A stretch of DNA of 64,000 nucleotides from a virus: positions 31,673 to 95,672 of IMG/VR virus record IMGVR_UViG_3300008954_000022; one strand, written 5' to 3'. Both the position numbers and the translations under genes were made by a program. Below are positions 16,425-64,000 of this stretch, one piece after another (within the stretch, counting starts at the first letter, position 1; each line of letters begins with the position of its first letter). Under the pieces are notes generated by a model. That model was not told where the DNA came from and made no database searches. It saw only the letters and a program-made list of their open reading frames with translations.

Positions 16425-16895
16425 ATGGCAAAGCTTACGCGCACTAACCTAAAAATGTTAGTCAAAGAGTGCTTAGTGGAGTTACTCGCTGAAGGCCTCT
16501 CAGATAATTCTAGTGTGCTTCGTGAATCACTAGTGAGACACGAGCCTGTAGCACCACCCTCGGTTTCTGGTCGAAGTGGTCGATTCCAGTCACAGCAATC
16601 GCTTCATCCTCCGAAGAATCCTGCACTTGACGGTACGAGGTTCAATAGTGCAGTGGACACTGCGGTCCGTGAGTTAACAAGCAATCCAATGATGGCAGAT
16701 ATTTTTGCGGATACTGCCAGAACAACGCTCCAGGAGCAGAATGCAGCTGGATCACCTGGAGGTGTTGGTGGCGCCGCTGATATGACAGAAGTTTTTGATG
16801 CACCTGGTGGTGATATATCCAGCATGACAGAGTTTGCAGGCGCCTCGAAGAACTGGGAGGCTCTAGCATTCGGTGATGGCTCAAAAAAGCTCTAG
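16425..16895 (+). CDS. Hypothetical internal head protein carrying the N-terminal basic tag
   Basis: Starts MAKLTRTNLKMLVKECLVELLAE. Confidence 0.55.
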   Translation: MAKLTRTNLKMLVKECLVELLAEGLSDNSSVLRESLVRHEPVAPPSVSGRSGRFQSQQSLHPPKNPALDGTRFNSAVDTAVRELTSNPMMADIFADTARTTLQEQNAAGSPGGVGGAADMTEVFDAPGGDISSMTEFAGASKNWEALAFGDGSKKL

Positions 16896-16978
16896 GGTCA
16901 ATCTAGATCCAGAAGATTTTTTGCGAACTTGATATGTATGATATGCGAACACGCTTATCATTGTAGGAGATACAACAA

Positions 16979-17293
16979 ATGGCACGAAGAGTTAGAAGGT
17001 TGACACCCACACTCCTCCGGAGAATGGTCCTCGAGGAAAAGTCTAAATTCGAAAGATCACGACGTCGACGTCGAATTCGTGAGACATCTGATCCTGTAGA
17101 GGCAGGTATTGAAGATCCCGAAAAGGTCCAGGCCGACGAGGTCGAGCCCGGCGATGAGGCTGAGTCCATTGCCAAGGATATTGACTGGATGAGAGCTCTT
17201 AAGATTCAAGAGAGAAAGCTCAGTTCAAAGTTGCGTAGAATTCAAGAGACCAAGAGGCGCCTTAGAGCACGAGTCGTGCGGCGTCTCTCGTAG
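16979..17293 (+). CDS. Arg-rich hypothetical core protein carrying the basic tag
   Basis: AGGAG SD sequence; MARRVRRLTPTLLRRMVLEE; basic-acidic-basic blocks. Confidence 0.6.
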   Translation: MARRVRRLTPTLLRRMVLEEKSKFERSRRRRRIRETSDPVEAGIEDPEKVQADEVEPGDEAESIAKDIDWMRALKIQERKLSSKLRRIQETKRRLRARVVRRLS

Positions 17294-17313
17294 GATATTA
17301 AGGAGATCAAGAG

Positions 17314-17790
17314 ATGCCTACTCACAAGCAAATAACAGTTGAGTCCACACCCACTGAGAGGTTTATGGGACGCTCGGCCAGTAATGACCTGGGCACAGCC
17401 TATCCTGCTTCTCCCATGGTTCTGGGTGATATGACCGATGACGAGAGGCGTCAGTGGTTTCAAGACAATGTTCTGGACGCCGTTATCAATGACGGCGGTC
17501 ACACATTCGGAGAGATTGATACATCCTACACTAATGCTCCCGATCTAGCCGATGTTGAGACAGGCGGAGGTGGGCTGCCCGGAAGCGCACATGTGCCCAA
17601 CCCAGTATCTCCTGGGCCTGGAAGCCACAATCCCGCTGATATTGCTGATCCCCCCGACGGTTGGGGGCTCAAGCCTTCAGACACGTGGGGTTCAGGCGTT
17701 GGCTCTCAACTCCAGCCTAAGGCATCTTCTGAGAAGATCTCCGGACAAACCCTGGGGGCGTATATTCTGGGTAAGTCCTCGGCTGAGTAA
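17314..17790 (+). CDS. Pro/Gly-rich hypothetical virion protein (paralogue of 17796..18395)
   Basis: AAGGAG SD sequence; shares YPASPMVLG, APDLADVE and HVPNPVSP blocks with the next gene. Confidence 0.6.
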   Translation: MPTHKQITVESTPTERFMGRSASNDLGTAYPASPMVLGDMTDDERRQWFQDNVLDAVINDGGHTFGEIDTSYTNAPDLADVETGGGGLPGSAHVPNPVSPGPGSHNPADIADPPDGWGLKPSDTWGSGVGSQLQPKASSEKISGQTLGAYILGKSSAE

Positions 17791-18965: not shown

Positions 18966-19208
18966 GTGTCGAAGCCAGTAAATGTCTCAGTTCGCCTCGG
19001 AGGAAAGATTCGAACATCTGAGCAGTTGATAAGACTATTCATAAGGAAGTGCAAGCGAGAAAGAATAGTACAGGAATACAGGGAATCTCTGGTATACGAG
19101 ACAAAAGGTCAGAAGCGCCGCCGAAAGAAGGCGCAGGGCAAAGCTCGGCGCAAGAGAGAAGAGGACAGCAACAAGAGTGATTCTACGAAAGATAAATTGA
19201 GGCGCTGA
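18966..19208 (+). CDS. rpsU: Phage-encoded 30S ribosomal protein bS21 homologue
   Basis: From GTG 18966, PVNVSVR..SEQLIRLFIRKCKRERIVQEYRESLVYETKGQKRRRKKAQGKARR aligns with the bS21 pattern V.VR..E.ALRRFKR.C.K.G.L.E.R.R.FYEKP..KR.RK..A..R. Confidence 0.75.
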   Translation: MSKPVNVSVRLGGKIRTSEQLIRLFIRKCKRERIVQEYRESLVYETKGQKRRRKKAQGKARRKREEDSNKSDSTKDKLRR

Positions 19209-19247
19209 ATCATATTTAGACACAACACACGTGTGAGAGAGAGGATT

Positions 19248-21017
19248 ATGAGTCAAAATCTTTATGACGACGCGATCGCCGAAGCACTCAGACTTGCCGA
19301 TATGGCTGAGGAGAATGCTCGGAACAAGATCATTGATGCAGTAACTCCTAGAATTAGGAGCCTCATTGAGCGTCAACTCCTGGGAGAGGACGATGGTCTG
19401 GATCCCTTGGACGACGAGCTCGAGGACGATGCCCCCGCAGGTGATGAAATACCTGGCGAGGGAGGACCTGAGGTTCTCGATCTAGACGCTGCATCTGATG
19501 ATTTAGCCGTCCCCGAAGCTCCGTCTGATGACCTCGGCATGCCGCCGGCGTCGCTAGAGCCGATGGGAGCACCTGTTGATCTAGCACTTCCAGGGGATGA
19601 TGATGCTGATGCAGCATCGGTCTCTGTAACACCTGACGGTGAAGTGGAGGTATCAGTAGGCGACATCAGTATTGAGGTCGACACTTCATCGGATGAGGGG
19701 GGCTTTGAGGATGAGGACGACCTCCTTCTCGGCCAAGAGGTCGCCGAGGCCCTGGCTCGTATGGTCTCACAAAGTACAACAGGACGACAGCGACTCCAGA
19801 AGAGAATTAAACTTCTTGAGTCTAGAATCAAAGTTTTAAGAAAAGCCCTGCCAATTGCCAAGAGGGCAGGTTCGACAAATAGACAGCGTCAACGAATAGC
19901 CCAGATTTTTGAATCCCTGGCACGTGAGGCAGTCATTTTGCGACGGCAGGTAATACTTACAGAGCAGGATACAGGAGGAACACTCCTAGAAAAAGCTCGC
20001 ATCAATTCTGTGATTAAGGAGATGAAGCAAATGTCAAGGCGTAGAAACAGGAACATCTTCGATTTTCTCTTCGAACAAGAAGAGGACCTCGAACTCGCAC
20101 CCGAGGAGGGGGAAGCCGTTGAAGGCGAAGAGGCACCGTTAGAGGAGCCAGATATCGACGCAGCGGAAGACGCCCTACTCGATCTAGGTGACGCACTCGG
20201 CCTTGAGGTCGAAGTACTGCCCCCAGAGGGCGAAGAGGGTGAAGAGGGTGAAGAGGCTCCTGAAGATGAGCTCGATCTCGAAGAAACCTATGAAATCGAT
20301 GAGGCAATGCTTCGTCGGGAGCTTCGTAGAATTCGTAAGCTTAATGAGAACGATCCAGTCGACGGCTCCGGAGACTCCTCGTTTGGCGGCGGTGACGCCG
20401 AAGACGAGCCCTTCGTAGAGGTAGATGAGGACGACCTTCTCAATGCCCTGGCCGACGAGCTTGGAGATGCTCCAGTTCCTGACGCCGGCGGTGGACAGCC
20501 TCCCGGACACGACGCGATGCCAGAGTCTTATAGAAGGAGACGCGCACGCGTGCGAAGGATGCGTGAGGCAGCACGACGACGTGCCAGCGCTCGAGGACGA
20601 CGACCAGTCGCCCGACGTAGCACCGGTGGAAGACGTAGTGCCGCTGGTGGTCGACAGATCGCCGAGTATCGCAAGGTGGTGAGTGCACTCAAGGGGCAAC
20701 TTACCGAAATGAATCTTTTCAATGCGAAGCTGCTTTATGCAAACAAGCTAATCCAGAATCGCAATCTAACAGCTAAGCAGCAAAGAGCAATAGTCGAGGC
20801 CCTGGATAATGCCAAGACGCTCCGCGAGGCAAAGCTTCTTTACAAGAGCTTGACTTCTTCGCTCAAGAAGGTCTCCAGGAAGAACCTTCAAGAGGGACGT
20901 AGCTCAAGATCGCTCGGATCATCCTCCAGATCAACCCGGTCGGCTTCGCCGTCCAACAGTGGGAATGAGGTGGATCGATGGGCAGTCCTCGCCGGTATTG
21001 ACAACGGTGGGAACTAA
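19248..21017 (+). CDS. Prohead scaffold/core protein (T4 gp22 position)
   Basis: Directly upstream of the major capsid gene. Very acidic segments with many (L/I)-x-E sites; coiled-coil C-terminus (LTEMNLFNAKLLYANKL...DRWAVLAGI); GAGGA SD before ATG 19248. Confidence 0.75.
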   Translation: MSQNLYDDAIAEALRLADMAEENARNKIIDAVTPRIRSLIERQLLGEDDGLDPLDDELEDDAPAGDEIPGEGGPEVLDLDAASDDLAVPEAPSDDLGMPPASLEPMGAPVDLALPGDDDADAASVSVTPDGEVEVSVGDISIEVDTSSDEGGFEDEDDLLLGQEVAEALARMVSQSTTGRQRLQKRIKLLESRIKVLRKALPIAKRAGSTNRQRQRIAQIFESLAREAVILRRQVILTEQDTGGTLLEKARINSVIKEMKQMSRRRNRNIFDFLFEQEEDLELAPEEGEAVEGEEAPLEEPDIDAAEDALLDLGDALGLEVEVLPPEGEEGEEGEEAPEDELDLEETYEIDEAMLRRELRRIRKLNENDPVDGSGDSSFGGGDAEDEPFVEVDEDDLLNALADELGDAPVPDAGGGQPPGHDAMPESYRRRRARVRRMREAARRRASARGRRPVARRSTGGRRSAAGGRQIAEYRKVVSALKGQLTEMNLFNAKLLYANKLIQNRNLTAKQQRAIVEALDNAKTLREAKLLYKSLTSSLKKVSRKNLQEGRSSRSLGSSSRSTRSASPSNSGNEVDRWAVLAGIDNGGN

Positions 21018-21053: not shown

Positions 21054-22943
21054 ATGTCCAAGAATTTTACACTTGATCAACTAACAGAGGGCATCCGGCA
21101 GCGGCACCTCGGTTCTCAGAACCGTCGTCTCGTTGAGAAGTGGGCCCGCACCGGCCTCCTCCGTGGCCTTGAGGGTGTTCATCGAGAGAACATGTCCAGA
21201 ATGCTTGAAAACCAGGCTGGCCAGCTACTCCGTGAGCGTTCCACCCTGTCCACAGGAGCCAGCGCCCTAACCAACGCAAATGACATTGCGGGATTCACCA
21301 ACGTGGCATTCCCAATCGTCCGCCGCGTGTTCGGCGGCCTGGTAGCCAATGAGCTGGTTTCTATCCAGCCCATGAGCCTACCTTCCGGCCTGCTGTTCTA
21401 CCTCGACTACCAGTATGGCTCTGATGGCGGCGCTGATGCCTCCTCAACAGAGGCAGTCTACAGTCAGGGAGACTCCATCTATAACAGCCCAACCGGCAAG
21501 GGCGTACGCTCCGGTTCACTAGGAACCGGCGGCCAGTACGACCTCGCAGGCAGTGGCTTCTCGCGCGTACACAGCAATACAGACCTGGATGCTGATATTT
21601 TCCTCGCTTCCGGTTCGTATGTGGGTGCTGCTTCAGCCGGCGGAAACTGGTCTGATGGTGGCAAGCTTCACGCGACGGGATCTGATGGCAAGCTTCTCCA
21701 GTTCGATCCACAGATCGCTGCGCTGATTGAGGATGACCCCAATCGAGCGAACACTGGACAGTTCCAGGCAGTTGTCCTCAATCTGGGTAACGCCTGCTTC
21801 TCCAATGCGGACCTCACCCTGGTGAAGGACATTGCGCTTCACTTCGGTGCTGCATCACCCAGCTCTGCATCCGGTCTTCCCAAGACGGTTCAGGGCGGTG
21901 TCGGTATCGTCAATGTGCGACGCCTCAACCAGATTGGAACGTGGACGAACAACGTGTTCACTGCTGATCCTCTCGTTAATCGGGCATCCACCGGTGCAGC
22001 TCTGATGGCTGTTATCTCCGGATCGATGCTTGATGATGCAGATCGTCAGAAGCTTGAGGTCTCCGTCGTTCTGGATTCCGCATTGAACGCCTCGAACGGT
22101 GAGACCCTTGTGGTTCCCGCCTTTGAGTCGGACTTCGGTGCAACACCAACTCCGGCAATCCCAGAGATCGATATCAAGATCGAGTCGATCGCTGTGACAG
22201 CGGTAACCAGAAAGCTGCGTGCCAAGTGGTCACCAGAACTCGCTCAGGACCTGAACGCCTACCACAGCCTCGACGCTGAGGTGGAGCTAACCCAGATCCT
22301 CTCCGAGCAGATCGCCCTAGAGTTGGACCGAGAGATTCTCAACGACCTGCTCACCCAGGCGAATGGTGCAAACCTCTACTGGAGTCGTGCACCTGGTAAG
22401 TTCGTCAACAAGGAGTCTGGCGCTGAGATCAATCAGAGCTCCAGTCTCGCTCCTGGACCCTCCTTCACGGGAACCGTCCGCGAGTGGTATGAGACTCTCA
22501 TTGAGACCGTCATTGACGTGGCAAACACCATTCATCGCAAGACGCTGCGTGGTTCTGCTAACTTCGTCGTGGTCGGTCCCGATGTGGCGACTATCCTTGA
22601 GGCATCGGTCTTCTATCGTCCGTCCTACACCCTAGACGGTGAGGGACAGGTCAGTGGTCCGATCTCCCTGGGAGCCGAGAAGGTCGGTACCCTGAGCAAT
22701 CGTTTCACGGTCTACAAGGACCCCTACTTCCCACGCAACAAGATTCTTGTTGGTTACAAGGGTGGTAGCTACCTTGAGACGGGATACGTCTACGCTCCGT
22801 ACGTGCCGCTTATCGTCACCCCGACGATCTTCGCACCCGAGGACTTCACTCCTCGCAAGGGCGTGATGACCCGTTACGGCAAGAAGATGGTTCGTTCCGA
22901 TTTCTACGGAACAGTGACACTCATGGATATGAACGTCATCTAG
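21054..22943 (+). CDS. Major capsid protein (T4 gp23-like)
   Basis: KWARTGLLRGL, FPIVRRVF..LVANELVSIQPM..PSGLLFYL, TRKLRAKWSPELAQDLNAYH.LDAEVEL, GYKG, YAPYVPL and FTPRKGVMTRY. Confidence 0.95.
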   Translation: MSKNFTLDQLTEGIRQRHLGSQNRRLVEKWARTGLLRGLEGVHRENMSRMLENQAGQLLRERSTLSTGASALTNANDIAGFTNVAFPIVRRVFGGLVANELVSIQPMSLPSGLLFYLDYQYGSDGGADASSTEAVYSQGDSIYNSPTGKGVRSGSLGTGGQYDLAGSGFSRVHSNTDLDADIFLASGSYVGAASAGGNWSDGGKLHATGSDGKLLQFDPQIAALIEDDPNRANTGQFQAVVLNLGNACFSNADLTLVKDIALHFGAASPSSASGLPKTVQGGVGIVNVRRLNQIGTWTNNVFTADPLVNRASTGAALMAVISGSMLDDADRQKLEVSVVLDSALNASNGETLVVPAFESDFGATPTPAIPEIDIKIESIAVTAVTRKLRAKWSPELAQDLNAYHSLDAEVELTQILSEQIALELDREILNDLLTQANGANLYWSRAPGKFVNKESGAEINQSSSLAPGPSFTGTVREWYETLIETVIDVANTIHRKTLRGSANFVVVGPDVATILEASVFYRPSYTLDGEGQVSGPISLGAEKVGTLSNRFTVYKDPYFPRNKILVGYKGGSYLETGYVYAPYVPLIVTPTIFAPEDFTPRKGVMTRYGKKMVRSDFYGTVTLMDMNVI

Positions 22944-23010: not shown

Positions 23011-23036
23011 CCCTCCGAGGGCGATAGTTATGTGGT

Positions 23037-27517: not shown

Positions 27518-27596
27518 CTACCCCATACGAAGGGGAACTTTGGGCGCGCCCTCAATACTTATCCTACGATGACATGAGTCTAAGGAGATACATTCA

Positions 27597-30500
27597 ATGG
27601 CCGAGCAGACATTCAGATCACCTGGGTTTTTCGAACAGGAGATAGATCTTTCCGCAAGGCGTGCCACTCCTCTCGGAACACCAGCTGGTGTAATTGGCAC
27701 CGCTGAAAGGGGACCCGCTTTCGTCCCAGTAACGCTGGGATCTCTGGCAGACTTCGAGGCCAGATTTGGCTCACTGCACAGAAATCGATTCGGGCCGTAC
27801 GCCGTGCGCGAGTTTCTTAAGAACAAGACATCCTTAACCTATATTAGAGTTTTGGGTGCAGGTTCTAATGAGACAACCACAGATATAACAACTACAGACA
27901 ACGAGGGAACTGTAAAGCATGCAGGTTTTCGCCTGGTGTCGACAGCTTTGGGGGTAGACGACAAGATCGATGCCGGCCACAATGGTGTCGTCCAGTTCTT
28001 GTGTGCAACACATGCCCTTCGAACTCTAGACGGTGGGGAAGCCGCAGGCTATCCGATGTTCAGCGACAATGATAGCTTCGCTGAGCGAGGCGGCGACGAC
28101 AAGGTAAATCTTGTTCGTGCTGTGCTTTTCACCCCGACGGGATCTCGACTTGAGGTTTTCGACGGAGATCAGCAGTATTCGAATTACGCTGCTGATATTG
28201 ATGATGTAGCATCACCTGTTGACATTGGCTCCGGCGCAGGAGGTCACTTCAAGCTAGCAATATCCTCTTCAGTGGGCACATCTTTTGCCAATGATGAGGG
28301 GTATGCGGGTGTGAGAATCTACACAGCTTCTCTCGATCCTAACAACGGACAGTACATTGGAAAGATTCTCAACACAGACCCACACAAGTTCCAGGAGGAG
28401 CATCACCTTCTCTATCTTGATTTTGCTGTAGAGGATGAGATAGCCTCAGTTGGAACAGTGGCTAGCTCTGTTGCGATCCTGTCCGGATCTGGACATGCGA
28501 CCTCTGGAGGTGGTGATACCTCAACAGTCTTCCGCGACCTCTTTGGAAGGTTTGACACGAGGTACACAACACCGAGAACCCCATCAATAATCTCTCAGCC
28601 GTACGGATCGACTGAGTTCGATCTCTTTCACTTCGAGACAATTAGTGACGGCGCGTGGGGCAATAATAAGTTCAAGGTTTCGATTGCCAATCTCCGCGCA
28701 TCGGTAGATCCCAATAATGATTTCGGCATCTTCGAGGTCCAGGTTCGTAGTTTTGGAGACACAGATCACAACAAGGAGATCCTCGAGACATTCCCAGAGT
28801 GTAGCCTGGATCCCAATCACGAGAATTATGTCGCCCGAAAGGTTGGCGACAAGAAGGTCTACTGGAACTTCGACGCCGCGGACGAGGACGAGCAACGCTT
28901 GGTGATTAGGGGCAAGTATCCTAATCGATCATCAAGAATTCGAATCGTCATGAATTCTGCTGTTGAGGAAGAAAAGATTCCGGCTGACGCTCTGCCTTTC
29001 GGCTTCCGAGGCGTACCGGTTCTCAAGACTTCAGATTCAATGATGGATCTTCAAGAGAACATTCTAACAGATAACAAGGGCGCAAATCTTGGTGAGTCTC
29101 GAAATAGACTGGACGGTGAGTTCTCATCTCTGGCACACGAGATTCAGGCACTAAGTGGTTCAATTGTTCCACCGCTTCCCATGCGCTTTAAGTGCACTCG
29201 AGGCGCTGTGGATTCAACCCCGACAACCTACTTGGGAGAGGTGGGAACCAATGAGCGTTCTGATAGCCGCCTCTACTGGGGCGTCAAGTTTGAACGCCTC
29301 CCAGTGACGTCCTCAGCTCCGGGTGGATCTGTTACAAACTCGATCCTCAAGGCAAATCAGGGCGGTCTGGCGAACCCACTAGTATCTGCTTACGCCAAGT
29401 TCAACGGAATTCAGAAGCTAGACACTCTAGTTACTGGCTCTGGCGCAGACTACTTCAACAATAACAAGTTCACGCTCGCGCGCGTGGCCCTCTACAATCA
29501 GCTTAGCAGCGGTCACATCACGGACGTGTCAGGGACAGCTAAGGAGCACATGCTCGAGACAGTCTACGTCCGGAACGGTAACCCCAATCCCTCGACGTAC
29601 GTTGTTGATGATAGTGTGAGAAAGAATCGCATCTCTCTCGCTACGTTGGTTCACTCGTCCTCGACGGTGTTCAATCGCTTCACTGAGTATGCGAAGTTCA
29701 CGACGATGTTCTACGGTGGTTTCGACGGCCTTAACATTCTGGACAAGGACTCACACCTGATGAACGATCGGGCATCCTCCTCAGATGCCGGCGGAAAGGC
29801 ACAGGCCGCGGCCAGTGTCGACATCGGCCTCCCGGCTGTGGCAACACTCAACCAGATGGGCGAGGGTAAGAAGAACAACGTGGTGAACTCCTTCCGAGTC
29901 GCCACAAGAATTTTAACGGACCCGATGGCATCCAACATCAACATCCTGGCAATTCCAGGCATGCGGGATACGTTCATCACAGACTACGCCTTGGAGAGGG
30001 TCAAGGACTACTCTATGGCATTCTATCTGATGGATGTTCTCAAGTATGACTCTTCTGAGAATCGCCTCTTTGACGATGACAAGAATAAGGTCGACGTTCG
30101 AGAGGTTGCTGAGCAGCTAGATTCCAGAGCCTTGGATAACAACTACGCTGCAACGTACTTCCCAGATGTGTATGTGAAGGATCCCGTCAACGGTACAACG
30201 ATCAAGGTTCCGGCCTCTGTGGCAGCTTTTGGTGCCCTGGCCTTCAATGACAAGGTCTCATTCCCATGGTTCGCTCCTGCTGGTTTCAACCGAGGAGCAC
30301 TGGAAAATGTTGCTAACGTCGATGTGAGGCTAAACTCTGCGGATAGGGACACACTCTATGATGCTAGGATCAATCCTATCGCCGTGTTCCCCGCAGGAGG
30401 CTTCGTAATCTTTGGGCAGAAAACCCTGCAGATGGCCAAGTCGGCACTGGATCGAGTTAACGTCCGACGGATGCTTCTCGAGGTGAAACGCCTGGTGGTC

Positions 30501-30764
30501 CAGGTTGCCAATCGTCTGCTGTTCGAGCAGAACAACTCGTCAACCCGTTCACGATTTGTGAATCAGGTAACACCCCTGCTGGCACTGGTCCAGGCCCAAG
30601 CGGGCATCGAGAGTTTCAATGTTGTCTGTGATGACACCAACAACTCATCGGTGGACGTCGAGGCAAATAAGATGAATGGACGAATTGTTGTTGTTCCCAC
30701 ACGAGCTGTGGAGTTCATCGCGATAGACTTCATCATTACCAACAGCGGGGTTTCGTTTGAGTAA
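27597..30764 (+). CDS. Tail sheath protein 1
   Basis: SPGFFEQEIDLS, GTAERGPAFVP, PWFAPAGFNRG, LYDARINPI, FGQKTL, LDRVNVRRML and PTRAVEFIAIDF. Confidence 0.92.
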   Translation: MAEQTFRSPGFFEQEIDLSARRATPLGTPAGVIGTAERGPAFVPVTLGSLADFEARFGSLHRNRFGPYAVREFLKNKTSLTYIRVLGAGSNETTTDITTTDNEGTVKHAGFRLVSTALGVDDKIDAGHNGVVQFLCATHALRTLDGGEAAGYPMFSDNDSFAERGGDDKVNLVRAVLFTPTGSRLEVFDGDQQYSNYAADIDDVASPVDIGSGAGGHFKLAISSSVGTSFANDEGYAGVRIYTASLDPNNGQYIGKILNTDPHKFQEEHHLLYLDFAVEDEIASVGTVASSVAILSGSGHATSGGGDTSTVFRDLFGRFDTRYTTPRTPSIISQPYGSTEFDLFHFETISDGAWGNNKFKVSIANLRASVDPNNDFGIFEVQVRSFGDTDHNKEILETFPECSLDPNHENYVARKVGDKKVYWNFDAADEDEQRLVIRGKYPNRSSRIRIVMNSAVEEEKIPADALPFGFRGVPVLKTSDSMMDLQENILTDNKGANLGESRNRLDGEFSSLAHEIQALSGSIVPPLPMRFKCTRGAVDSTPTTYLGEVGTNERSDSRLYWGVKFERLPVTSSAPGGSVTNSILKANQGGLANPLVSAYAKFNGIQKLDTLVTGSGADYFNNNKFTLARVALYNQLSSGHITDVSGTAKEHMLETVYVRNGNPNPSTYVVDDSVRKNRISLATLVHSSSTVFNRFTEYAKFTTMFYGGFDGLNILDKDSHLMNDRASSSDAGGKAQAAASVDIGLPAVATLNQMGEGKKNNVVNSFRVATRILTDPMASNINILAIPGMRDTFITDYALERVKDYSMAFYLMDVLKYDSSENRLFDDDKNKVDVREVAEQLDSRALDNNYAATYFPDVYVKDPVNGTTIKVPASVAAFGALAFNDKVSFPWFAPAGFNRGALENVANVDVRLNSADRDTLYDARINPIAVFPAGGFVIFGQKTLQMAKSALDRVNVRRMLLEVKRLVVQVANRLLFEQNNSSTRSRFVNQVTPLLALVQAQAGIESFNVVCDDTNNSSVDVEANKMNGRIVVVPTRAVEFIAIDFIITNSGVSFE

Positions 30765-34538: not shown

Positions 34539-34901
34539 GTGAGAGTTAGAAGAAATCGGCTGAGGGTAATCATTCGTGAGTGCATTCTCGTCGAGAAGGG
34601 TGAGGCGTACGCCTCCGACGTCACCAAGCTTAAACCAGAGATTGAGGAGTGGGTCGGTGTACTCATTGATGAGCTCGGAAAAACCTCACCTCGTGTCTTA
34701 GAGATGGATGATAGGCGTAGAGGTGCTGTGATCCGTCGATTAACAGACGCTGTTGCGTTGGAGATGATCGACGTGTTTGGACATCCCATTGATCCCAAAA
34801 AGATAAAGAAGCGCGAGCGGGATAAGTGGAAGAAGGAGGAGCAGGAAGAGTTATCTCAACGTGCTTCTAAAGTTAACTACTACGGCCGCGGCGGCTACTA
34901 A
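34539..34901 (+). CDS. Hypothetical protein carrying the N-terminal basic tag
   Basis: AGGAGG SD sequence; ATAGTTA at 34511-34517; begins MRVRRNRLRVIIRECILVE. Confidence 0.6.
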   Translation: MRVRRNRLRVIIRECILVEKGEAYASDVTKLKPEIEEWVGVLIDELGKTSPRVLEMDDRRRGAVIRRLTDAVALEMIDVFGHPIDPKKIKKRERDKWKKEEQEELSQRASKVNYYGRGGY

Positions 34902-49922: not shown

Positions 49923-51146
49923 GTGGTAATCTGCATTCTCAGCTCTGTAACCGGCGCCGGCAAGCACCTCCTCGTCAGCCCGGAAACGGGTGAGTGCCAG
50001 TGGTCAGCCCGGGTACCCGACAACTCCTGGACTGTGGGCGATCCGAACAGCCTACAATCATTGGAGGCCTACGCAGATGTGCTAGGAACGAGAATCCCAG
50101 GTATCGCGCCCAGAGCTCAGACCCGTGCTTTTGAGGTCCTCCTTGGATCCGATCACGGTGTCCGAATCCCATGGCGGATGGTTATGACAGCTGAAGACTT
50201 TCAGGTTGCGCTCCAGAATGTGCTTCAAGCAGCTCAGAGTGTTCTCTGTAGCTTAGGTCAGGACAGATATGGGCAAACATACCTTCGCGCCCGAGGAATG
50301 CTTCTGGGATTAAATCCCGCTACTGTTGATCAGGCCAAGATTAACCGCTACATCCGCGAGACAGAGGGGGGTCCCTCCGTGGCCTCTGCTCTTCGATCGT
50401 TCCTTCCGAAAGAGGGGAGCACTGCTCCACCGATAACCTACAATCAGGCAGCCACTGTCACTGGCAGATTGACTGTTAGAACCGGGCCATCGATCCTCAC
50501 TCTCCCTGCTCGATATCGTGACATTCTCTCCAGCAGGTTCAGGGGAGGTAGTGTGGTCCAGGTGGACTTCGTCTCACTGGAGCCAAGGGTTGCTCGATAC
50601 GTGGCAGGGGATGAGGCACCGACTGACATCTACACACACATGTGTGAGGCACTGTTCAACGGGGAGATGACACGTGACAAGGTAAAGTTGGCAACCATCT
50701 CTGCACTGTATGGGATGTCCAGCCGTCGTCTGTCAGACCTTCTCAGTAGTGAGTCGAGCGCCAAGTCCGCGATTCGTCAGATTCGGAGGTATTTCTCGGT
50801 GGGGCGACTCGAGAGCCAGTTACAGAACGAGCTGTCCGCGCTGGGATCCATAACCAGCGCGCTAGGGAGATCCCTTCGACCTGACACTGCCACATCTCAT
50901 GTTCTGGTGAGTCACTACATTCAGTCGACTGCTGCCGATGTGGCCCTGTTGGGATTTGCGCAACTTACTGATCGCTTGGAGGAGATGAACATAAGCGCCG
51001 TTCCCCTCTACGTGATTCATGACGCTCTTTTGCTTGATGTCCCGGCCGAGAATCTGGGACAACTTCGGGACGAGGTTGAGAGGGGAGTTGATCTCCCACT
51101 GGGCCAGTTCCCTATCGAGATGACATCCGTGTCTTCTGCGGTGTGA
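49923..51146 (+). CDS. Family A DNA polymerase, polymerase domain only
   Basis: T.TGRLT, motif A VQVDFVSLEPR, motif B RDKVKLATISALYG, IQSTAAD and motif C VIHDALLLD. Confidence 0.8.
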   Translation: MVICILSSVTGAGKHLLVSPETGECQWSARVPDNSWTVGDPNSLQSLEAYADVLGTRIPGIAPRAQTRAFEVLLGSDHGVRIPWRMVMTAEDFQVALQNVLQAAQSVLCSLGQDRYGQTYLRARGMLLGLNPATVDQAKINRYIRETEGGPSVASALRSFLPKEGSTAPPITYNQAATVTGRLTVRTGPSILTLPARYRDILSSRFRGGSVVQVDFVSLEPRVARYVAGDEAPTDIYTHMCEALFNGEMTRDKVKLATISALYGMSSRRLSDLLSSESSAKSAIRQIRRYFSVGRLESQLQNELSALGSITSALGRSLRPDTATSHVLVSHYIQSTAADVALLGFAQLTDRLEEMNISAVPLYVIHDALLLDVPAENLGQLRDEVERGVDLPLGQFPIEMTSVSSAV

Positions 51147-51166: not shown

Positions 51167-51751
51167 ATGAGCAGAAATAAGTCAGAAGTATTTATTAGAA
51201 GGCAGGTCCGACGGGCCCTGAGACAGATCCTCCTTGAGCAGGATGACAAGCAGGATGACAAGCAGCAACGCGCCGCCGGCAAGTTCGAAGTTATCGCCCT
51301 CAAGGGTAGTGGTGGTGATATTTCTGGAGATCTCAAGAAGATTTTTGCCGGCGAGGGTGTGGATCCTAAAGATGTCAAGGCAGATGATCTACTATCACGA
51401 AAGAATCCTAGTCAGCTAATGAAGAACCTTGGCCTCTCTACTCCTGCAGGGACAGCCAGCATCGAGAAGCTCAAGAACTTTCTGAATCAGGCAGTCTCTG
51501 TGCGGGCGGAAATGTCTAGCGTCTATGACAAACCCACCATTAAGAAAGACAGCAAGGGACGAATCGCACTTCACGTAAGGTTTAGAGATCTCACAGATCA
51601 CCAGGGTCACTTCTTCATAAAGGAAACGCTCAAGGCTGCTGAAAAATCAGGCTATGTTCAACTTTCTGAGAAGATTCTTCGTGTGGCGAAAGAATCAGGA
51701 CATGTTGTTGTCTATCCCGCGAAGGACAGAAAAGACAAGTGGGGCCAGTGA
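51167..51751 (+). CDS. Hypothetical protein carrying the N-terminal basic tag
   Basis: ATATTTA at 51152-51158; MSRNKSEVFIRRQVRRALRQILLE; 12-bp tandem repeat CAGGATGACAAG x2. Confidence 0.6.
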   Translation: MSRNKSEVFIRRQVRRALRQILLEQDDKQDDKQQRAAGKFEVIALKGSGGDISGDLKKIFAGEGVDPKDVKADDLLSRKNPSQLMKNLGLSTPAGTASIEKLKNFLNQAVSVRAEMSSVYDKPTIKKDSKGRIALHVRFRDLTDHQGHFFIKETLKAAEKSGYVQLSEKILRVAKESGHVVVYPAKDRKDKWGQ

Positions 51752-52430: not shown

Positions 52431-52844
52431 GTGAGCCTTCTTCGTAAGTACATTCGACAAATTATTCTCGAGCATGAGGGGTCGCTCGACGGAAGATGGA
52501 CTTCTACCGGTGTCCCAAATTCCGCTGGTGGGACGAGGACCGTTAGTGATACAAACAGCGACAACATGTCATGGTCATCCGAGGACGACACCGACGACGG
52601 CCCACCCGATGATCTTCTGATAGAGCCTGACTTTGTCGAGGATCCGGATGAGGAGGGTAAGGACATCCGCAAGGAGATCTCAGCCATCAGCGGAGGGGGC
52701 GGAGCAATGACTTCCACCAACGCGATTGGCGGCGCCACAACTCCTCTGGGAACTGGTCCCACCTACCCATCGAAGAAGAAAAAGAAGAAGCGCAAGAAGA
52801 AGGGGAAGTACCCCACGTACGGTACCCTCTCTAGCGACGATTAA
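52431..52844 (+). CDS. Hypothetical low-complexity protein carrying the N-terminal basic tag
   Basis: ATACTTA at 52400-52406; MSLLRKYIRQIILE; acidic middle region and poly-Lys tail. Confidence 0.55.
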   Translation: MSLLRKYIRQIILEHEGSLDGRWTSTGVPNSAGGTRTVSDTNSDNMSWSSEDDTDDGPPDDLLIEPDFVEDPDEEGKDIRKEISAISGGGGAMTSTNAIGGATTPLGTGPTYPSKKKKKKRKKKGKYPTYGTLSSDD

Positions 52845-57328: not shown

Positions 57329-59839
57329 ATGACTCAGATCACGTACGATGCTGCTTATGCTGCCTGTCTGGAATATTTTGACGGAGACAACCTAGCTGCA
57401 AATGTCTTCTTGACCAAGTACGCCCTGACTGACAGGGAGGGGAACCTTCAGGAGAGCACCCCGGATGACATGCATCACCGCATGGCCAGGGAGTTCGCAA
57501 GGATTGAGAGAAAGTATCCGAATCCGATGTCTGAGGAGGAGATCTACCAACTCTTCAGAAAGTTCAAGTATGTGATACCCCAGGGCTCACCCATGTCAGG
57601 TATCGGGAATGATTATCAGGTACAGTCAATTTCTAACTGCTTTGTTATTGAGTCCCCTCATGACTCCTACGGAGGTATCTGCAAGACAGATCAGGAGCTT
57701 GTCCAGATTGCTAAGCGCCGCGGCGGGGTGGGATTTGATATTTCCACGATTCGACCCAAGGGCCAGGCGACCGGTAACTGTGCCAGAACGACTGACGGGA
57801 TTGAAGTCTTCATGGACAGATTCTCTAACTCCTGTCGGGAGGTAGCCCAGGGCGGCCGCAGAGGTGCTCTGATGATAACACTCTCTGTGCATCACCCACA
57901 GATAAGGGATTTTATCCGTATCAAGCGGGACCTCCGACGAGTGACAGGAGCGAACATCTCCGTCAGACTTACGGATGAGTTCTTGCAGGCTGTCTCTGAC
58001 GATGCCAATGTGGAGTTGAGATTTCCTATTGATGCTGCCTCTCCGGAGATTTCTAATCAGGTTAAAGCAAAGGAGCTCTGGGACGAGATTATTGAGAGCG
58101 CGCACGAGTGTGCAGAGCCAGGTCTTCTAATGTGGGACAATGCAAAGAGGCTCACTCCGTCGGATGTGTATGATGATGTGGGCTTCGGATCGACATCGAC
58201 GAACCCATGTGCGGAGATCGTGCTGTCCCCGTATGACAGCTGTCGTCTAATGATTGTCAATCTACTGAGCTTCGTTGAAGAGCCCTTTGCTGACTCCGCA
58301 AGGTTCAACTATGAGAGGTTCGATGAGGTGGTTCAGCAGGCACAGCGTCTAATGGATGACATGATCGACCTCGAGATTGAGCAGATTGAGAAGATTCTGG
58401 ACAAGATTCATAATGATCCGGAACCGGAGGCTGTGAAGGCCATTGAGCGAGAGCTCTGGCAGAACATAAGAACCCAAGCCGAGAGGGGACGACGCACCGG
58501 CCTGGGAGTTACCGCCGTCGGTGATGCTCTGGCAGCATTGAATATTCGGTACGGAAGTCGTGAGTCAATTGATACAGTCGAGAGGTTCTACCGAGCTTTG
58601 GCAACTGGAGCGTATCGCTCATCTTGTATAATGGCCCGAGACAGGGGCGCATTTCCTATTCACAGTCATCAGAAGGAGCAGGGACACGAGTTCCTGGAGC
58701 GAATCTGGGATACGGATGATGAGATTAGGCGCATGTCAGAGAAGTATGGCAGGAGAAATATTGCGCTGACGACTACTGCACCAGCAGGCTCTGTCTCTGT
58801 TCTAACACAGACGACCTCTGGTATTGAGCCGGCCTACCTTCTCAAGTACACCAGGCGAAAGAAGATCAACCAGGAAGCTGACCCACATGCTCAGGTGGAT
58901 TTTGTAGATGATGTGGGTGACTCGTGGCAGGAGTACGAAGTATATCACCATGGCTACAAGAAGTGGCTTGACAAATACAGCAATACAGTTGCCAAGGGTA
59001 TCGAAGCATCAGGGACTTCAGTGGATGAAGAGGGACTCATAGCAATGAGTCCATACTGGAAGTCGACCTCAGGAGACATTGATTGGATTGCGAAGGTCCG
59101 AATGCAGGCCGCAGCACAGAGGTGGATCTGTCACGCGATATCGAACACAACAAACGTACCTAAAGACACAGATAAGGCTACAGTCGCTGAGATTTACATG
59201 GAGGGCTGGCGCGCCGGATGCAAGGGTGTCACTGTCTACCGAGACGGCTCGAGGTCTGGTGTGCTAGTTGAGTCACGTGAAAACGAGGGGATCAGGTATC
59301 ACAGCTCTCCCAAGCGACCCTTGACGCTCCCCTGTGATATCCACCACGCCACTATCAAGGGTGAGAAGTGGACCATCCTTGTGGGTCTGCTCGACGGTCA
59401 ACCCTATGAGATTATAGGCGGATTGGCAGAGTTTGTTGAGATTCCAAAGAAGTATAACGTAGGCACAATTGCAAAGAGGCCTCGCAAGACGAGAAACTCC
59501 ATTTACGACCTCAGCTTTGGAGAGAACGGCAACGAGGTGACAATTAAGGATGTTGTGCGTGTCTTCGATAATCCCAACCACGCGGGATTCACGAGAATAA
59601 TGTCCCTAGCACTCAGGCACGGAGCTCCTCGTCAGTACATTGTCGAACAGCTCCAGAAGGACAAGGATGCTGACCTCTTCTCGTTTGCCAGAGTTACAGC
59701 GAGGGTCCTCAAGAAGTATATCAAGGATGGGACAGTCCCAGGAAAGACAACGTGTGAGAATTGTAGCTCTGAGGACACCCTAATCTATCAGGAGGGCTGT
59801 GTTACCTGCACGGCCTGTGGATTCGGAAAGTGCGGATGA
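57329..59839 (+). CDS. nrdJ: Class II (adenosylcobalamin-dependent) ribonucleotide reductase
   Basis: SNCFV, GGVG, QGGRRGA, TNPCAEI, RRTGLG, APAGSVS..TQTTSGIEP, ISNTTN and KGVTVYRDGSR. C-terminal TSCPD-like domain and CxxC...EGC..C..CG..KC tail; no adjacent beta subunit. Confidence 0.88.
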   Translation: MTQITYDAAYAACLEYFDGDNLAANVFLTKYALTDREGNLQESTPDDMHHRMAREFARIERKYPNPMSEEEIYQLFRKFKYVIPQGSPMSGIGNDYQVQSISNCFVIESPHDSYGGICKTDQELVQIAKRRGGVGFDISTIRPKGQATGNCARTTDGIEVFMDRFSNSCREVAQGGRRGALMITLSVHHPQIRDFIRIKRDLRRVTGANISVRLTDEFLQAVSDDANVELRFPIDAASPEISNQVKAKELWDEIIESAHECAEPGLLMWDNAKRLTPSDVYDDVGFGSTSTNPCAEIVLSPYDSCRLMIVNLLSFVEEPFADSARFNYERFDEVVQQAQRLMDDMIDLEIEQIEKILDKIHNDPEPEAVKAIERELWQNIRTQAERGRRTGLGVTAVGDALAALNIRYGSRESIDTVERFYRALATGAYRSSCIMARDRGAFPIHSHQKEQGHEFLERIWDTDDEIRRMSEKYGRRNIALTTTAPAGSVSVLTQTTSGIEPAYLLKYTRRKKINQEADPHAQVDFVDDVGDSWQEYEVYHHGYKKWLDKYSNTVAKGIEASGTSVDEEGLIAMSPYWKSTSGDIDWIAKVRMQAAAQRWICHAISNTTNVPKDTDKATVAEIYMEGWRAGCKGVTVYRDGSRSGVLVESRENEGIRYHSSPKRPLTLPCDIHHATIKGEKWTILVGLLDGQPYEIIGGLAEFVEIPKKYNVGTIAKRPRKTRNSIYDLSFGENGNEVTIKDVVRVFDNPNHAGFTRIMSLALRHGAPRQYIVEQLQKDKDADLFSFARVTARVLKKYIKDGTVPGKTTCENCSSEDTLIYQEGCVTCTACGFGKCG

Positions 59840-59843
59840 GATC

Positions 59844-60446
59844 ATGAAGTGGACAACAGAGATATCGCCACTCCTCAAGGAGTACGAGCTGAGGAAGAAC
59901 ATTGTGATTCCCCGGGTCAACAAGTTCGATGAGAACAGCGCGAAAAAATTTGTGGACGAGATGGCCAAGGCTCACAACTCCGGGCAGCCCGTCATTCCCG
60001 TGATAATTGACTCCTATGGAGGACAGGTCTATTCCCTGATGACGATGATAGCTGCGATTCAGGATGCTGAGATTCCTGTTGCAACAATTGTTGAGGGCAA
60101 GGCAATGTCCTGTGGAGCGATTCTCTTCTCCTTTGGAAGGGAGGATTATCGATTCATGGATCCAAACGCCACAGTGATGATTCACGATGTCTCCTCTATG
60201 GAGTACGGAAAGGTCGAGGAGATCAAGGCCTCGGCCGACGAGACAGAGAGACTGAATCAGATTGTGTATCGGATGATGGGTCGAAATTGTGGAAAGAAGG
60301 CAGATTACTTCTTAAAACTAGTTCACAAGCGCGGACACGCGGACTGGTTCCTAGATGCTGAAGAGGCGAAAAAGCACAATCTAGCCAACCACATCAGACT
60401 TCCCAAGCTGCATATTACGGTCAGTGTTGACATCGATTTTGAGTAG
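59844..60446 (+). CDS. ClpP-like serine protease
   Basis: IIDSYGGQV, GKAMSCG (Ser), VMIHD (His) and DWFL.AEEA (Asp). Confidence 0.82.
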   Translation: MKWTTEISPLLKEYELRKNIVIPRVNKFDENSAKKFVDEMAKAHNSGQPVIPVIIDSYGGQVYSLMTMIAAIQDAEIPVATIVEGKAMSCGAILFSFGREDYRFMDPNATVMIHDVSSMEYGKVEEIKASADETERLNQIVYRMMGRNCGKKADYFLKLVHKRGHADWFLDAEEAKKHNLANHIRLPKLHITVSVDIDFE

Positions 60447-61441: not shown

Positions 61442-61524
61442 ACAACTGTGGCAGTGGGTAATACCTTTCAGTCGTTCGTGTAATATTTAGTCTTACATAC
61501 AACGCTGTGTTCGGGGTAAGAGTA

Positions 61525-63201
61525 TTGTCCAAGAGAATCAACGAGCTTTCTTTAGGTGAACCGACAAAGAGTGTTGAGTACACTGGATTCGTACTTGACG
61601 CTGCTTCTCACCAGAAATTAGCTGCCCTCGCCCCGGAAGGCTGGAAGGTGTTCGCGCACCACATGACAGTCATTAATCCCCCAAACATGAAGAGGAGACT
61701 TCCAGCTCGATGGCTGGGAGCAGAGTTCTGTGTAAGGGTGGTTGGGGTTGCCCAGGACAGTATGGTTATGACAGCTCTTGTGGACTTGGGAGGCACACCT
61801 ATTCCAATGAAGGGCCCTGAGTATCCTCATGTGACCATCGCCACAAATCCCTCAGCCGGCGGAAAACCGGCAATGTCTAACTGGAAGTTCAAGCCGAAAA
61901 TTGACGAGTTTAATTTTCAGGAGATCACGCCCATCACGATCTGTGGAACGATTGAGGAAGTCATGCGAGAGGGAAGAAGATCGACCACACTCCGGAGACT
62001 TATTCGGGAGACCCTTCTTCGTGAAGCCCCGTCTGAAGAGCCAGTCAGGATGCCCTTGAACCTTCCAGTTCCAGCAGACATTCGTGACCTGACCAAGGAG
62101 TTTCGCGCTGCAGGGCACGAGCTCTATATTGTCGGCGGCGCAGTTCGAGATGCCCTGCTGAATAAGACACCTAAGGATTACGATCTTGCGACTAGCGCAC
62201 CGCCTGATAGAGTGATAGAAATACTCTCAGGATCGCCAGAGTTCCAGACCAAGCCCGTTGGTGAGGCGTTCGGTGTGGTGTTGGTGAAAACTCCGGATGG
62301 CAGTGAGTACGAGGTGGCAACCTTTCGAAAGGATATTGGTAAGGGTCGTCGCCCGGACTCGGTGGAGTTCACTGATATCAAGTCTGATGTTCAGCGACGC
62401 GACCTCACCATCAATGCTCTTTTCTACGACTTGGACACAGGAGAGGTGGTTGACTATGTGGGAGGTATTGAGGATCTAACCAATGGAGTAGTCCGGACTG
62501 TCGGACAACCTGAGGACAGGTTCGGTGAGGATAAGCTTCGAGTGCTTCGTGCGATTCGGTTCGCGGCGAGGTTAGGCTCGGATCTAGATCCTGACACCGC
62601 GCGCGCGATAAAGGAGGATCCCATTCTGGAGCAGGTCTCCTCCGAGAGAATACGGGATGAGTTCCTTAAGGGTATAGAGTCAGCACAGCGGGTACCTCAC
62701 TTTCTGGAGATGTTTGAGGAACTAGACCTCTTCGAGGAGGTCTTTCCTGGGCTCGAGGTTAACGCAGAGTATCACCAAGAGCGAGATCCAATAATCCAAT
62801 TGGCTCTTCTTCTTCGGGACAACGTGCCAACTGCAGTGTCACAGACACTTAAGAGTTTGAAGTATACAAACGAGGAAGTCAAGAAGATTGCCTTTCTCTT
62901 GGCATTCCAGGAGCTCCAGGAAACATCTGCACCCCAGCTTAAGAAGAGGTACAACGCATCAGGATTGAGTCCCGATCAGTTGAGTGTTTTTGCCGAGGCT
63001 GTGCAGGTGCCATCCGAAAGGCACGTTAGTGCTTTCCTTGAGTTCGCCGGGGCCCCACCATCTGCTGACCCCCGAGAGTTGATGTCACAGGGGTTGACAG
63101 GACCTGATATCGGAAAGGCGATGGAGGACGCGGAGTACGATGCTTATCGACAATTGGTGGGAGAGTCAGTACTACGAGCCTATATCAGGCTTTTCGCGTA
63201 G
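61525..63201 (+). CDS. Fusion of 2H phosphoesterase (cyclic phosphodiesterase-like) and class II CCA-adding tRNA nucleotidyltransferase
   Basis: N-terminal HHMTV and PHVTIA..GGKPAMSN give the two HxT motifs. Then VGGAVRD..DYD, RRDLTINA, EDKLRVLRAIRF and SERIRDE. Start is TTG 61525 or GTG 61507. Confidence 0.85.
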   Translation: MSKRINELSLGEPTKSVEYTGFVLDAASHQKLAALAPEGWKVFAHHMTVINPPNMKRRLPARWLGAEFCVRVVGVAQDSMVMTALVDLGGTPIPMKGPEYPHVTIATNPSAGGKPAMSNWKFKPKIDEFNFQEITPITICGTIEEVMREGRRSTTLRRLIRETLLREAPSEEPVRMPLNLPVPADIRDLTKEFRAAGHELYIVGGAVRDALLNKTPKDYDLATSAPPDRVIEILSGSPEFQTKPVGEAFGVVLVKTPDGSEYEVATFRKDIGKGRRPDSVEFTDIKSDVQRRDLTINALFYDLDTGEVVDYVGGIEDLTNGVVRTVGQPEDRFGEDKLRVLRAIRFAARLGSDLDPDTARAIKEDPILEQVSSERIRDEFLKGIESAQRVPHFLEMFEELDLFEEVFPGLEVNAEYHQERDPIIQLALLLRDNVPTAVSQTLKSLKYTNEEVKKIAFLLAFQELQETSAPQLKKRYNASGLSPDQLSVFAEAVQVPSERHVSAFLEFAGAPPSADPRELMSQGLTGPDIGKAMEDAEYDAYRQLVGESVLRAYIRLFA

Positions 63202-63240
63202 GAGACAAATAGTTATGTTGTGTAGGAGTGGGAGACAAGT

Positions 63241-64000
63241 ATGAAACTTTCAATGAGGCAGCTGAGAAGATTGATTCTCACCGAGTCCAGAAGGACTCCA
63301 AGTCTAGTCGAACTATTGTTCGAAGAGGAGGAACTCAATTCGACCGAGCCTTCTGATTCTGGCGATGCCGGTGCAGATCTTGAGGCAGCATTCAAGGCAG
63401 GTCCCGAAGGGGTCCGGGCTTTTATGGATACCAACAAAGATGAGTCTGTAGTAGACATCTTAGCAAAAGCTGCTGAAGAATATGATGGATCCGCTGAGGA
63501 TGATGTGATTACTGTCGGTGGTGCAACGCCCACAGCTGTTAAGGATCTCGGACCTACACAACAATTCATTGATTTAATGCAGTCAGTTTCCTTTCCTCTT
63601 GGGAGTGCCAAGGTTTTGGACGGTGCAATCTCTAGCAAGACTACTGGGGCCCCAGGAGCAATTTCAGTTTCGGGTGGTGCAGTGTTAGATGGCCATCACA
63701 GGTGGTCAGGAGTTTTTGCCATCACCCCAGACGGCGCGATCAGTTCGAAGGATTTTGGGTTTCCCGGGGGTGTCACAGAGAAGCTAGCTGCGGCACAGAT
63801 GGCAGTTGCTGCTGTGAAAAAAGGAAAGGGTCAGCCCTCAAAGGGTGGCGGCGCTGCAACCGATATTATAGGTAAAGGAGCACCCGAGATTGTTGCTATG
63901 ATTGACGCAAACAAGGGTGAGCAGACAGATCCGGATGCTCCTGGACCCCTTCTCAACGACGAGATGATTCAGTCGATTGCTAATGGAGATTATCCTGGCA
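63241..64000 (+). CDS. ParB/sulfiredoxin-fold protein carrying the N-terminal basic tag, 3'-truncated (absent from the ORF track)
   Basis: Translated by hand: MKLSMRQLRRLILTE...VKDLGPTQQFID...ISVSGGAVLDGHHRWSG..., open to the window end. GGAG SD; ATAGTTA at 63209-63215. Confidence 0.7.
   Translation, partial: MKLSMRQLRRLILTESRRTPSLVELLFEEEELNSTEPSDSGDAGADLEAAFKAGPEGVRAFMDTNKDESVVDILAKAAEEYDGSAEDDVITVGGATPTAVKDLGPTQQFIDLMQSVSFPLGSAKVLDGAISSKTTGAPGAISVSGGAVLDGHHRWSGVFAITPDGAISSKDFGFPGGVTEKLAAAQMAVAAVKKGKGQPSKGGGAATDIIGKGAPEIVAMIDANKGEQTDPDAPGPLLNDEMIQSIANGDYPG

Follow-up and report, generated by a model that had tools for sequence, protein, structure and literature searches.

We analysed a stretch of 64,000 nucleotides (the window), corresponding to positions 31,673 to 95,672 of IMG/VR virus record IMGVR_UViG_3300008954_000022 and forming the last part of a 95,672-bp viral contig from an uncultured marine far-T4 (T4-like) phage. 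CheckV estimates the completeness of the contig at 28%, making it a fragment of a larger phage, and the plus strand holds all genes that look real. Positions are given in the window throughout; adding 31672 converts them to genome coordinates. Seven of these genes, whose products are unrelated to one another, share a short basic and amphipathic motif, here called the tag, of the form h-[RK]-x-h-h-([RK]-[EQ]-x-h)-h-x0-1-E, where h is a hydrophobic residue. A preliminary description of the window had drawn attention to these peptides, all of which lie where it placed them, and had proposed that they constitute a portable signal for packaging proteins into the virus head. The tagged genes, named hereafter by their first position, are as follows.

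16425..16895, plus strand: head-module protein; N-terminal tag LKMLVKECLVE (16449-16481), then LLAE (to 16493)
16979..17293, plus strand: head-module protein; short-form N-terminal tag LTPTLLRRMVLEE, with LRRMVLEE at 17015-17038
34539..34901, plus strand: 120-residue protein; N-terminal tag LRVIIRECILVE (34560-34595); ATAGTTA at 34511
51167..51751, plus strand: 194-residue protein; tag helix FIRRQVRRALRQILLE (VRRALRQILLE, 51206-51238); ATATTTA at 51152, 15 nucleotides before the ATG
52431..52844, plus strand: 137-residue acidic protein; tag LLRKYIRQIILE (LRKYIRQIILE, 52440-52472); ATACTTA at 52400
61507..63201, plus strand: 2H phosphoesterase fused to a CCA-adding enzyme; tag LRRLIRETLLRE (61990-62025) at the joint; ATATTTA at 61483
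63241..64000, plus strand: cargo-family protein, cut off by the contig end; N-terminal tag MKLSMRQLRRLILTE (LRRLILTE, 63262-63285); ATAGTTA at 63209

Six of the seven tags are N-terminal, starting at residues 4-22 and lying wholly within residues 4-32, and the seventh is internal, at residue 162 of the 61507 protein. They end in LVE, LEE, LVE, LLE, ILE, LRE and LTE, all h-x-E, in agreement with the terminal (L/I/V)-x-E noted in the preliminary description, and are followed by acidic or disordered sequence. When 25 orthologues of the 51167 protein are aligned, the long form of the tag proves to be the short form with four residues, or one helical turn, added. The long-form pattern has five matches in the proteome compared with 0.01 in shuffled proteomes. 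Because this pattern was fitted post hoc, profiles were also built leaving out one family at a time, and for the five long tags the left-out tag ranked 1, 1, 1, 1 and 3 among 30,301 proteome positions; the proposal that unrelated reading frames share one tag is therefore borne out. A profile made from relatives only, the kind of scan of genome and relatives that the preliminary description had suggested, gave ranks 1-6 to the six strongest tags of the window and rank 9 to that of 63241, and over the contig it found no further tagged protein. A profile of the 16425 family alone recovered just 34539 above the shuffle limit, and the tags are therefore a loose class and not a single tight motif.

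Across 160 related loci, 105 of the 156 pattern matches fall within the first 40 residues; of the remainder, 31 are one conserved motif of the tail sheath and several reflect mis-called starts. Tagged proteins form 15 unrelated clusters across these loci, and the terminal h-x-E is kept in all full-length orthologues, compared with 64% of control N-termini. We regard the tag as a real, N-terminal motif, selected at the protein level. A literature search on the motif strings returned nothing relevant. Two look-alikes were set aside: the C-terminal NVRR(M/L)L(L/I)E of the sheath (including NVRRMLLE), present in both sheath paralogues, fits the tag pattern but belongs to the sheath, where it is conserved, and the tag that an HD-domain orthologue (L153:7244) seems to carry is an artefact of a TTG start mis-called over a ribosome-binding site.

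Shared N-termini of this kind might instead be recombination cassettes exchanged at the DNA level, or products of chance composition, and mobile regulatory cassettes are known to shuffle genes in T4-type phages (PMC2839356). At third codon positions, however, the identity of one tag to another is near random (0.2-0.6), and the synonymous codons used for Arg and Leu differ from tag to tag; a recombination cassette is therefore ruled out, and conservation resides in the protein and not in the DNA. Taken with the shuffled proteomes and the leave-one-out ranks, the codon comparison refutes this explanation, whose probability we consider negligible.

The orthologues hold the tag while overall identity falls to 22-39%. 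Full-length members among the 39 distinct orthologues of 16425 keep it as LKxIVKECLVEILAEG, and the 22 distinct orthologues of 16979 keep LTPxLLRKIVLEE; in the window both genes sit between the protease and scaffold genes. Two homologues of the 34539 protein (P0004 and P0005) start MRISKRQL(E/R)RLIRES(I/L)LLEKGE, and the protein has no family match. Alignment of orthologues puts the true start of the 51143 gene at the ATG at 51167; all of the 25 aligned orthologues are tagged, and 30 distinct ones keep the tag wherever the N-terminus is present. An AlphaFold2 model of this protein (predicted local distance difference test score, pLDDT, 86) has the tag helix at residues 3-24, disorder at 28-36 and then a confident globular domain, and a fold search with the model against the PDB gave no match at E <= 0.001. 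All 19 distinct orthologues of 52431 are tagged. The 52431 family (e.g. L112:1145) has a second strongly conserved motif, LLTEPD, an L-x-E site some 30-60 residues in.

The dispersed tagged genes also share a promoter-like motif. ATA[CTG]TTA occurs in 22 copies on the plus strand and 2 on the minus strand, and the 3.1 kb of intergenic sequence holds 15 copies, for an expectation of 0.8; it is a real, strand-specific intergenic signal. The genes for scaffold, adaptor, sheath, tube, baseplate hub and a large tail protein have the motif 13-43 nucleotides ahead of their starts.

27555..27561, plus strand: ATA[CTG]TTA before the sheath gene; other copies at 23024, 24246, 33892, 35470, 36624, 36935 and 42702

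As had been described, the motif precedes all five dispersed tagged genes (34539, 51167, 52431, 61507 and 63241), and within 43-64 kb it is found before four genes, the tagged ones, and before no other. The sigma70-like promoters that the same description had assigned to the neighbouring replication genes are not supported, a scan of 46-64 kb yielding 16 sites against 12.4 in shuffles. The association between tag and motif extends to the relatives, which also use ATAATTA: in their replication-block loci ATA.TTA lies upstream of 11 of 28 tagged genes compared with 60 of 800 untagged ones, the loci being related and the counts not independent. The structural genes with which the motif keeps company suggest that the genes bearing it belong to a late class; no late sigma factor was found on the contig fragment. 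Copies of ATAnTTA starting at -9882, 23024 and 51152 begin only 13-15 nucleotides before the start codon, which, if the motif is a -10-type element, implies leaderless or near-leaderless mRNAs.

The contig encodes a T4-type head machine: besides the portal there are an S77 protease that retains both catalytic residues, a scaffold like gp22 and a capsid protein like gp23.

12494..14530, plus strand: T4 gp20-type portal protein (phrog_213 portal, E 6.6e-71)
15364..15978, plus strand: prohead protease of the T4 gp21 family, Peptidase_S77 (Pfam PF03420, 1.1e-23; phrog_207)
19233..21017, plus strand: gp22-like scaffold, between the protease and capsid genes; N-terminal AIAEA; promoter-like motif at 19212
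21054..22943, plus strand: gp23-type major capsid protein (Pfam Gp23, 1e-75)

In an alignment to T4 gp21 (5jbl), His and Ser of the S77 protease fall on the catalytic residues of the T4 enzyme, in keeping with the preliminary description, which had called the 15364 product a protease. The N-terminus of the window protease, KLLTE/W (the slash marking the actual or presumed point of cleavage), parallels LLIE/TW of T4 gp21, a site in accord with the cleavage logo of gp21, where auto-cleavage has been proposed as possible (PMC9026906). The scaffold lacks a profile match of its own and was assigned by position, composition, its 18 [LI]xE sites and its N-terminal AIAEA, to be compared with LIAEA in T4 gp22; it contains two tag-like segments, IRSLIERQLLGE (19353-19388, residues 41-52, conserved in relatives) and MLRRELRRIRKLNE. 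The capsid protein shares the landmarks KW...LL.G and ENQ with T4 gp23, and its N-terminal delta domain, conserved in 22 relatives, likely ends at a maturation site, QLLRE/ (21222-21236); T4 gp23 is cut after FLTE65 (PMC9958956) and T4 gp24 after ELLRE10 (PMC5694885). QLLRE resembles the tag ends TLLRE and QILLE.

A precedent for such peptides is the capsid-targeting sequence (CTS) of phage T4, reportedly treated by Mullaney and Black in 1996. It is carried by IPI, IPII and IPIII, which are internal proteins, and by Alt, from which gp21 removes it (PMC9026906, PMC9958956); gp21 cuts after (hydrophobic)-x-E sites and takes off targeting propeptides of 10-20 residues (PMC9026906, PMC5694885), and one review holds that loading by targeting sequence may be general among T4-like phages (PMC9026906). 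We consider it probable that the tag is a lineage-specific prohead-targeting propeptide resembling the T4 CTS and removed by the S77 protease. An amphipathic N-terminal helix of 8-16 residues would act as capsid-targeting sequence on proteins made late, from the promoter type of the structural genes. The helix would dock its protein into the assembling prohead core, probably at the gp22-like scaffold's own sites, and the gp21-family protease would then cut after the terminal hydrophobic-x-Glu, leaving the mature protein free inside the head. Docking, cutting, packaging and injection are all steps that we infer by analogy with T4, in which a change of the terminal Glu to Asp is reported to stop cleavage while leaving targeting intact.

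The likeness to the T4 system is one of arrangement. In both, a short N-terminal peptide ending in hydrophobic-x-Glu is found on unrelated proteins, in a genome that encodes a protease of the gp21 family, a scaffold like gp22 and a capsid protein like gp23; the tagged genes are dispersed and vary between relatives, and propeptides can occupy both ends of a protein, as in T4 Alt (PMC9026906). The differences are equally plain. The basic LRRLIRExLLxE and the T4 sequence MKTYQEFIAE share nothing beyond the terminal h-x-E; the phage tag is somewhat longer, in two lengths one helical turn apart; and it is found on enzymes (a CCA-adding enzyme and a NUDIX hydrolase) and at a fusion joint, one cargo family carrying in addition a scaffold C-terminal peptide. 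Whereas the T4 CTS was defined by experiment, the tag is known here from sequence alone.

Further tag types were found in other T4-like lineages. In a related 102-kb contig (G001; L193-L198) at least eight genes start MKLL(L/M)ENWRK(Y/F)LxE, and the protein encoded at 13234-14001 of that contig has the motif at both ends, as MLMENWRKYLLE at the N-terminus and DNWRNFLLTEEKL at the C-terminus. In a T4-like 48-kb contig (G002; L199-L201) at least eight proteins start F-x-x-[FW]-[LVM]-[NST]-E, e.g. MKHIQTFESFLNES, and these tags are close to the T4 CTS. The cultured phage immuto (L203) has the same head module and its own tag type, e.g. MKKSQIVKAVQEVLEE and MxNF(N/D)L(R/K)xFLxENKL. Contigs holding other tag types yielded no capsid gene, or only a 21.8-bit fragment of one.

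The 63241 family has more than 430 homologues, and tag types and C-termini were read in the best 120. In front of the same conserved domain stands one of at least four N-terminal tag types, which differ between lineages and all close with a hydrophobic residue, one or two more residues and a Glu: that of the window, (K/R)QLRRIIRE or IRRLVLEE; MKLLMENWRKFVNE; ARLQKLAGILKE; and MLKLKDLLTE; other members have no tag. Since the same cargo family bears different tags in different lineages, the tag follows the phage lineage and not the cargo, which is what an address fitted to the phage's own machinery would be expected to show.

The full-length form of the 63241 protein (P0074, 368 residues) ends ERWQRLAGLLRD, and ERWQKLAG(L/I)IK is the C-terminus of 68 of the 120 members, P0074 included. 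The extreme C-terminus of the scaffold, (D/N/S/G)RWAxLAG(I/L), is the most conserved part of that protein: R582, W583, A584, L586, A587 and G588 are invariant in 32 sequences, the window scaffold has RWAVLAG at 20976-20996, and the scaffold of phage immuto ends SRWQKLAGIIK. Among all related loci a motif of the RWxxLAG type occurs at the C-termini of only two families, the scaffold and 63241, and in other lineages the same motif serves as the N-terminal tag of the 63241 family. We read the C-terminal ERWQ[KR]LAG of this family as a copy of the invariant RWAxLAG of the scaffold, that is, as scaffold mimicry. In T4 itself the targeting sequence YQEFIAE/A (read from ipII and ipIII in NC_000866) resembles the gp22 N-terminus EQLIAE/A, and the internal proteins co-purify with gp22 (PMC9026906). 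A complex prediction for the scaffold and the first 45 residues of the 51167 protein gave a score of 0.00, which is no verdict and weighs neither way. The ParB/Srx label attached to 63241 is a tentative one that comes only from the invariant DGHHRWS motif of the family and one weak atlas lead, at 0.88. The family has no match in Pfam (ParB_N included), a profile search of the PDB gave a chance-level hit only, and an AlphaFold2 model from 4 sequences (pLDDT 42) was unusable. A tblastn search with a family protein against cultured phages found no match, and a search of the related loci with P0123 found nothing.

In the 61507 protein, Pfam PolyA_pol matches residues 206-330 (1.7e-34), and the internal tag sits exactly at the joint between the 2H phosphoesterase and the CCA-adding enzyme. 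Other phages encode the two halves separately: an unfused CCA enzyme (L082) starts MKENIKQILREGLLRE, its tag being N-terminal, and the 2H gene of the 102-kb contig ends ...EEVLR, at the point where the 61507 protein runs on into the tag. An ATG at 61964, nine codons before the tag, has GAGGAAG upstream (in a 90%-identical relative, a TTG with GAGGAGG), and because of this start codon and box an internal start is possible. The C-terminus of the fusion carries a truncated tag-like sequence, ESVLRAYIR (63163-63189), for which the orthologue in the 90% relative (L081) has a complete motif, SLRAFVRTVLSERL. In that relative the gene following the CCA enzyme is a tagged NUDIX hydrolase and not 63241. 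A 604-residue open reading frame (ORF) of another relative (L155:7203) has a complete N-terminal tag, MEKKMNINRKLLSDLIKEVMLSE, at residue 472, which reflects either another fusion made at a tag or read-through in the ORF call.

The tagged proteins may not all meet the same fate. [LI]xE sites are densest in the head-module proteins, the scaffold and the 34539 protein (3.3 per 100 residues); the 16425 protein is likewise rich in them, and 16979 has the highest density in the genome. It could be that every tagged protein is an assembly part, a core or scaffold accessory or a source of internal peptides that is loaded and then degraded, so that nothing functional is delivered. The place of 16425 and 16979 in the head module would fit such a role, as would the ranking of these two and 34539, with the scaffold, among the most [LI]xE-rich proteins, and the short, acidic 52431 family with its second conserved L-T-E site; T4 likewise degrades gp22, gp67 and gp68 to small peptides (PMC9958956). 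As an account of the whole set we nevertheless consider it unlikely: folded or conserved domains follow the tag in the CCA-adding enzyme, the NUDIX hydrolase and the 51167 and 63241 proteins, and the [LI]xE density of the CCA fusion is just about twice the genome mean. The diverse cargo envisaged in the preliminary description accordingly divides. Delivery is more plausible for the tagged enzymes and the 63241 family; 16425, 16979, 34539 and 52431, being small and rich in [LI]xE, look more like degradable core proteins than cargo. Under the prohead-targeting interpretation the small members would probably function as proteins of the core or yield internal peptides, and the CCA-adding enzyme, the NUDIX hydrolase of the 90% relative and the 63241 family would probably be carried in the head and leave it with the DNA.

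Metabolic-type enzymes are unexpected in a capsid, and their presence among the tagged proteins lends something to the alternative that the capsid is not involved and the tag serves as an amphipathic helix for docking in general, perhaps as a degron or adaptor site for the phage's own ClpP-like protease or for host Clp machinery, or as a membrane- or nucleoid-targeting element. The tags are basic and hydrophobic, as such a helix could be, and the phage has a ClpP-family protease at 59799-60446 (Pfam CLP_protease, 6.7e-24), which is encoded in the replication and metabolism block and comes in addition to the S77 head protease. A helix of this kind would, however, leave unexplained the terminal Glu found in all families, the two members in the head module, the link to the promoters of structural genes and the scaffold C-terminal peptide of the 63241 family. 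A Tat or Sec signal in particular is ruled out, since only 3-8 mixed residues separate the Arg pair from the Glu, beyond which the sequence is acidic or disordered, with no hydrophobic stretch. We rate a docking function of this sort a little below the assembly-part explanation. The tag might also be a leader recognised by a modifying enzyme of the radical-SAM/SPASM type, but PF04055 scores only 13.6 bits, inside the ribonucleotide reductase gene, and the contig fragment holds no radical-SAM gene (weak evidence); moreover, the tags cluster beside no single enzyme gene except the head protease. This we hold to be very improbable.

Several observations weigh against the interpretation of the tag as a prohead-targeting propeptide. 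It has no sequence similarity to the T4 CTS and would be an analogue of it, not a homologue. The h-x-E ending is by itself common, one being contained in 64% of control N-termini, and only 39% of the tagged genes in the replication blocks of relatives have the promoter motif. The resemblance of the N-terminal tag to residues 41-52 of the scaffold is visual only, no profile ranking that segment highly. One tag is internal, and tag-like motifs also occur at C-termini (the L081 CCA enzyme and the G001 13234 protein), so that the tag is not strictly an N-terminal propeptide. The packaging of NUDIX-type or CCA-type enzymes would be unusual, and absences carry little weight on a contig that is a fragment at 28% completeness.

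Other systems provide partial parallels. In phages phiKZ, 201phi2-1 and SPN3US many head proteins, enzymes among them, are processed by a gp21-type protease, and N-termini are conserved between diverged paralogues; unlike the tag, their propeptides are mostly longer than 100 residues, have no single portable motif and are cut at (S/A/G)-x-E (PMC5694885, PMC10052503). Encapsulin cargo-loading peptides are likewise short, terminal (at either end) and lineage-specific, and send diverse cargo into an HK97-fold shell, but their sequences are unrelated to the tag and there is neither protease step nor scaffold, making this an analogy of mechanism only. The coat-binding C-terminus of P22-type scaffolds, likened here by description, recalls the clade's scaffold, in which the extreme C-terminus is the most conserved part and is copied by a cargo family.

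Protein sorting into the T4-type core was called 'mysterious' in a 2023 review (PMC9958956). A bolder proposal, which we offer tentatively and think rather less likely to be right than wrong, is that far-T4 phages possess an address code copied from the end peptides of the scaffold, consisting of an N-terminal helix and a C-terminal RWxxLAG anchor, that loads any protein bearing it, and that phages of this clade deliver ready-made enzymes with their DNA, including a pair for repair of tRNA 3' ends. The 2H phosphoesterase and CCA-adding pair would then counter host defences that cut tRNA before phage genes are expressed, and the copying of scaffold peptides may explain how proteins are sorted into the T4-type core. 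In print the CTS is known, by experiment, from a few T-even internal proteins; if the tag is its counterpart, the T4 principle would hold also in an extensive and uncultured marine clade, whose capsid gene has more than 600 relatives in IMG/VR (61-70% capsid identity), through a signal that differs in sequence from that of T4 and is swapped between lineages on one cargo family. Candidate injected proteins, the tRNA-repair enzyme among them, could be recognised from their sequences, and new loading tags for foreign proteins in phage heads would become available. The new elements are the basic tag in a marine clade, the swapping of tags on one family, the scaffold-derived C-terminal peptide and the tagged tRNA-repair fusion.

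The best match of the capsid protein is LR756508, an unannotated uncultured-phage record (49% identity), and the best cultured match is Flavobacterium phage immuto (vB_FspM_immuto; 47%); a megablast search with the head module found no match among cultured phages. The tail genes on the contig comprise two sheath paralogues, tail tube, baseplate hub and head-tail adaptor. The replication block holds a PolA fragment, an HD protein, a gp32-like protein, RecA, a 5'-3' exonuclease, a DnaB-like helicase, a ribonucleotide reductase, the ClpP-like protease and an amidase.

Some features of this gene content are recorded here as minor observations. Only the C-terminal half of the family A DNA polymerase is recognisable, in a 407-residue ORF at 49923-51146; the 1,033-residue and 1,139-residue ORFs that precede it (46766-49867 is given) have no family match and may hold the remainder of the polymerase. 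The sheath paralogues stand in tandem at 27597-30764 and 30813-33875, each of about 1,000 residues. Between the head genes and the scaffold gene, an 80-residue ORF (18966-19208) scores 26.5 bits against Ribosomal_S21, for which the cut-off is 27 bits. An RNaseH_like gene (PF04308, 7.4e-22) lies at 34937-35440, after the tagged 34539 gene and before that of the baseplate hub.

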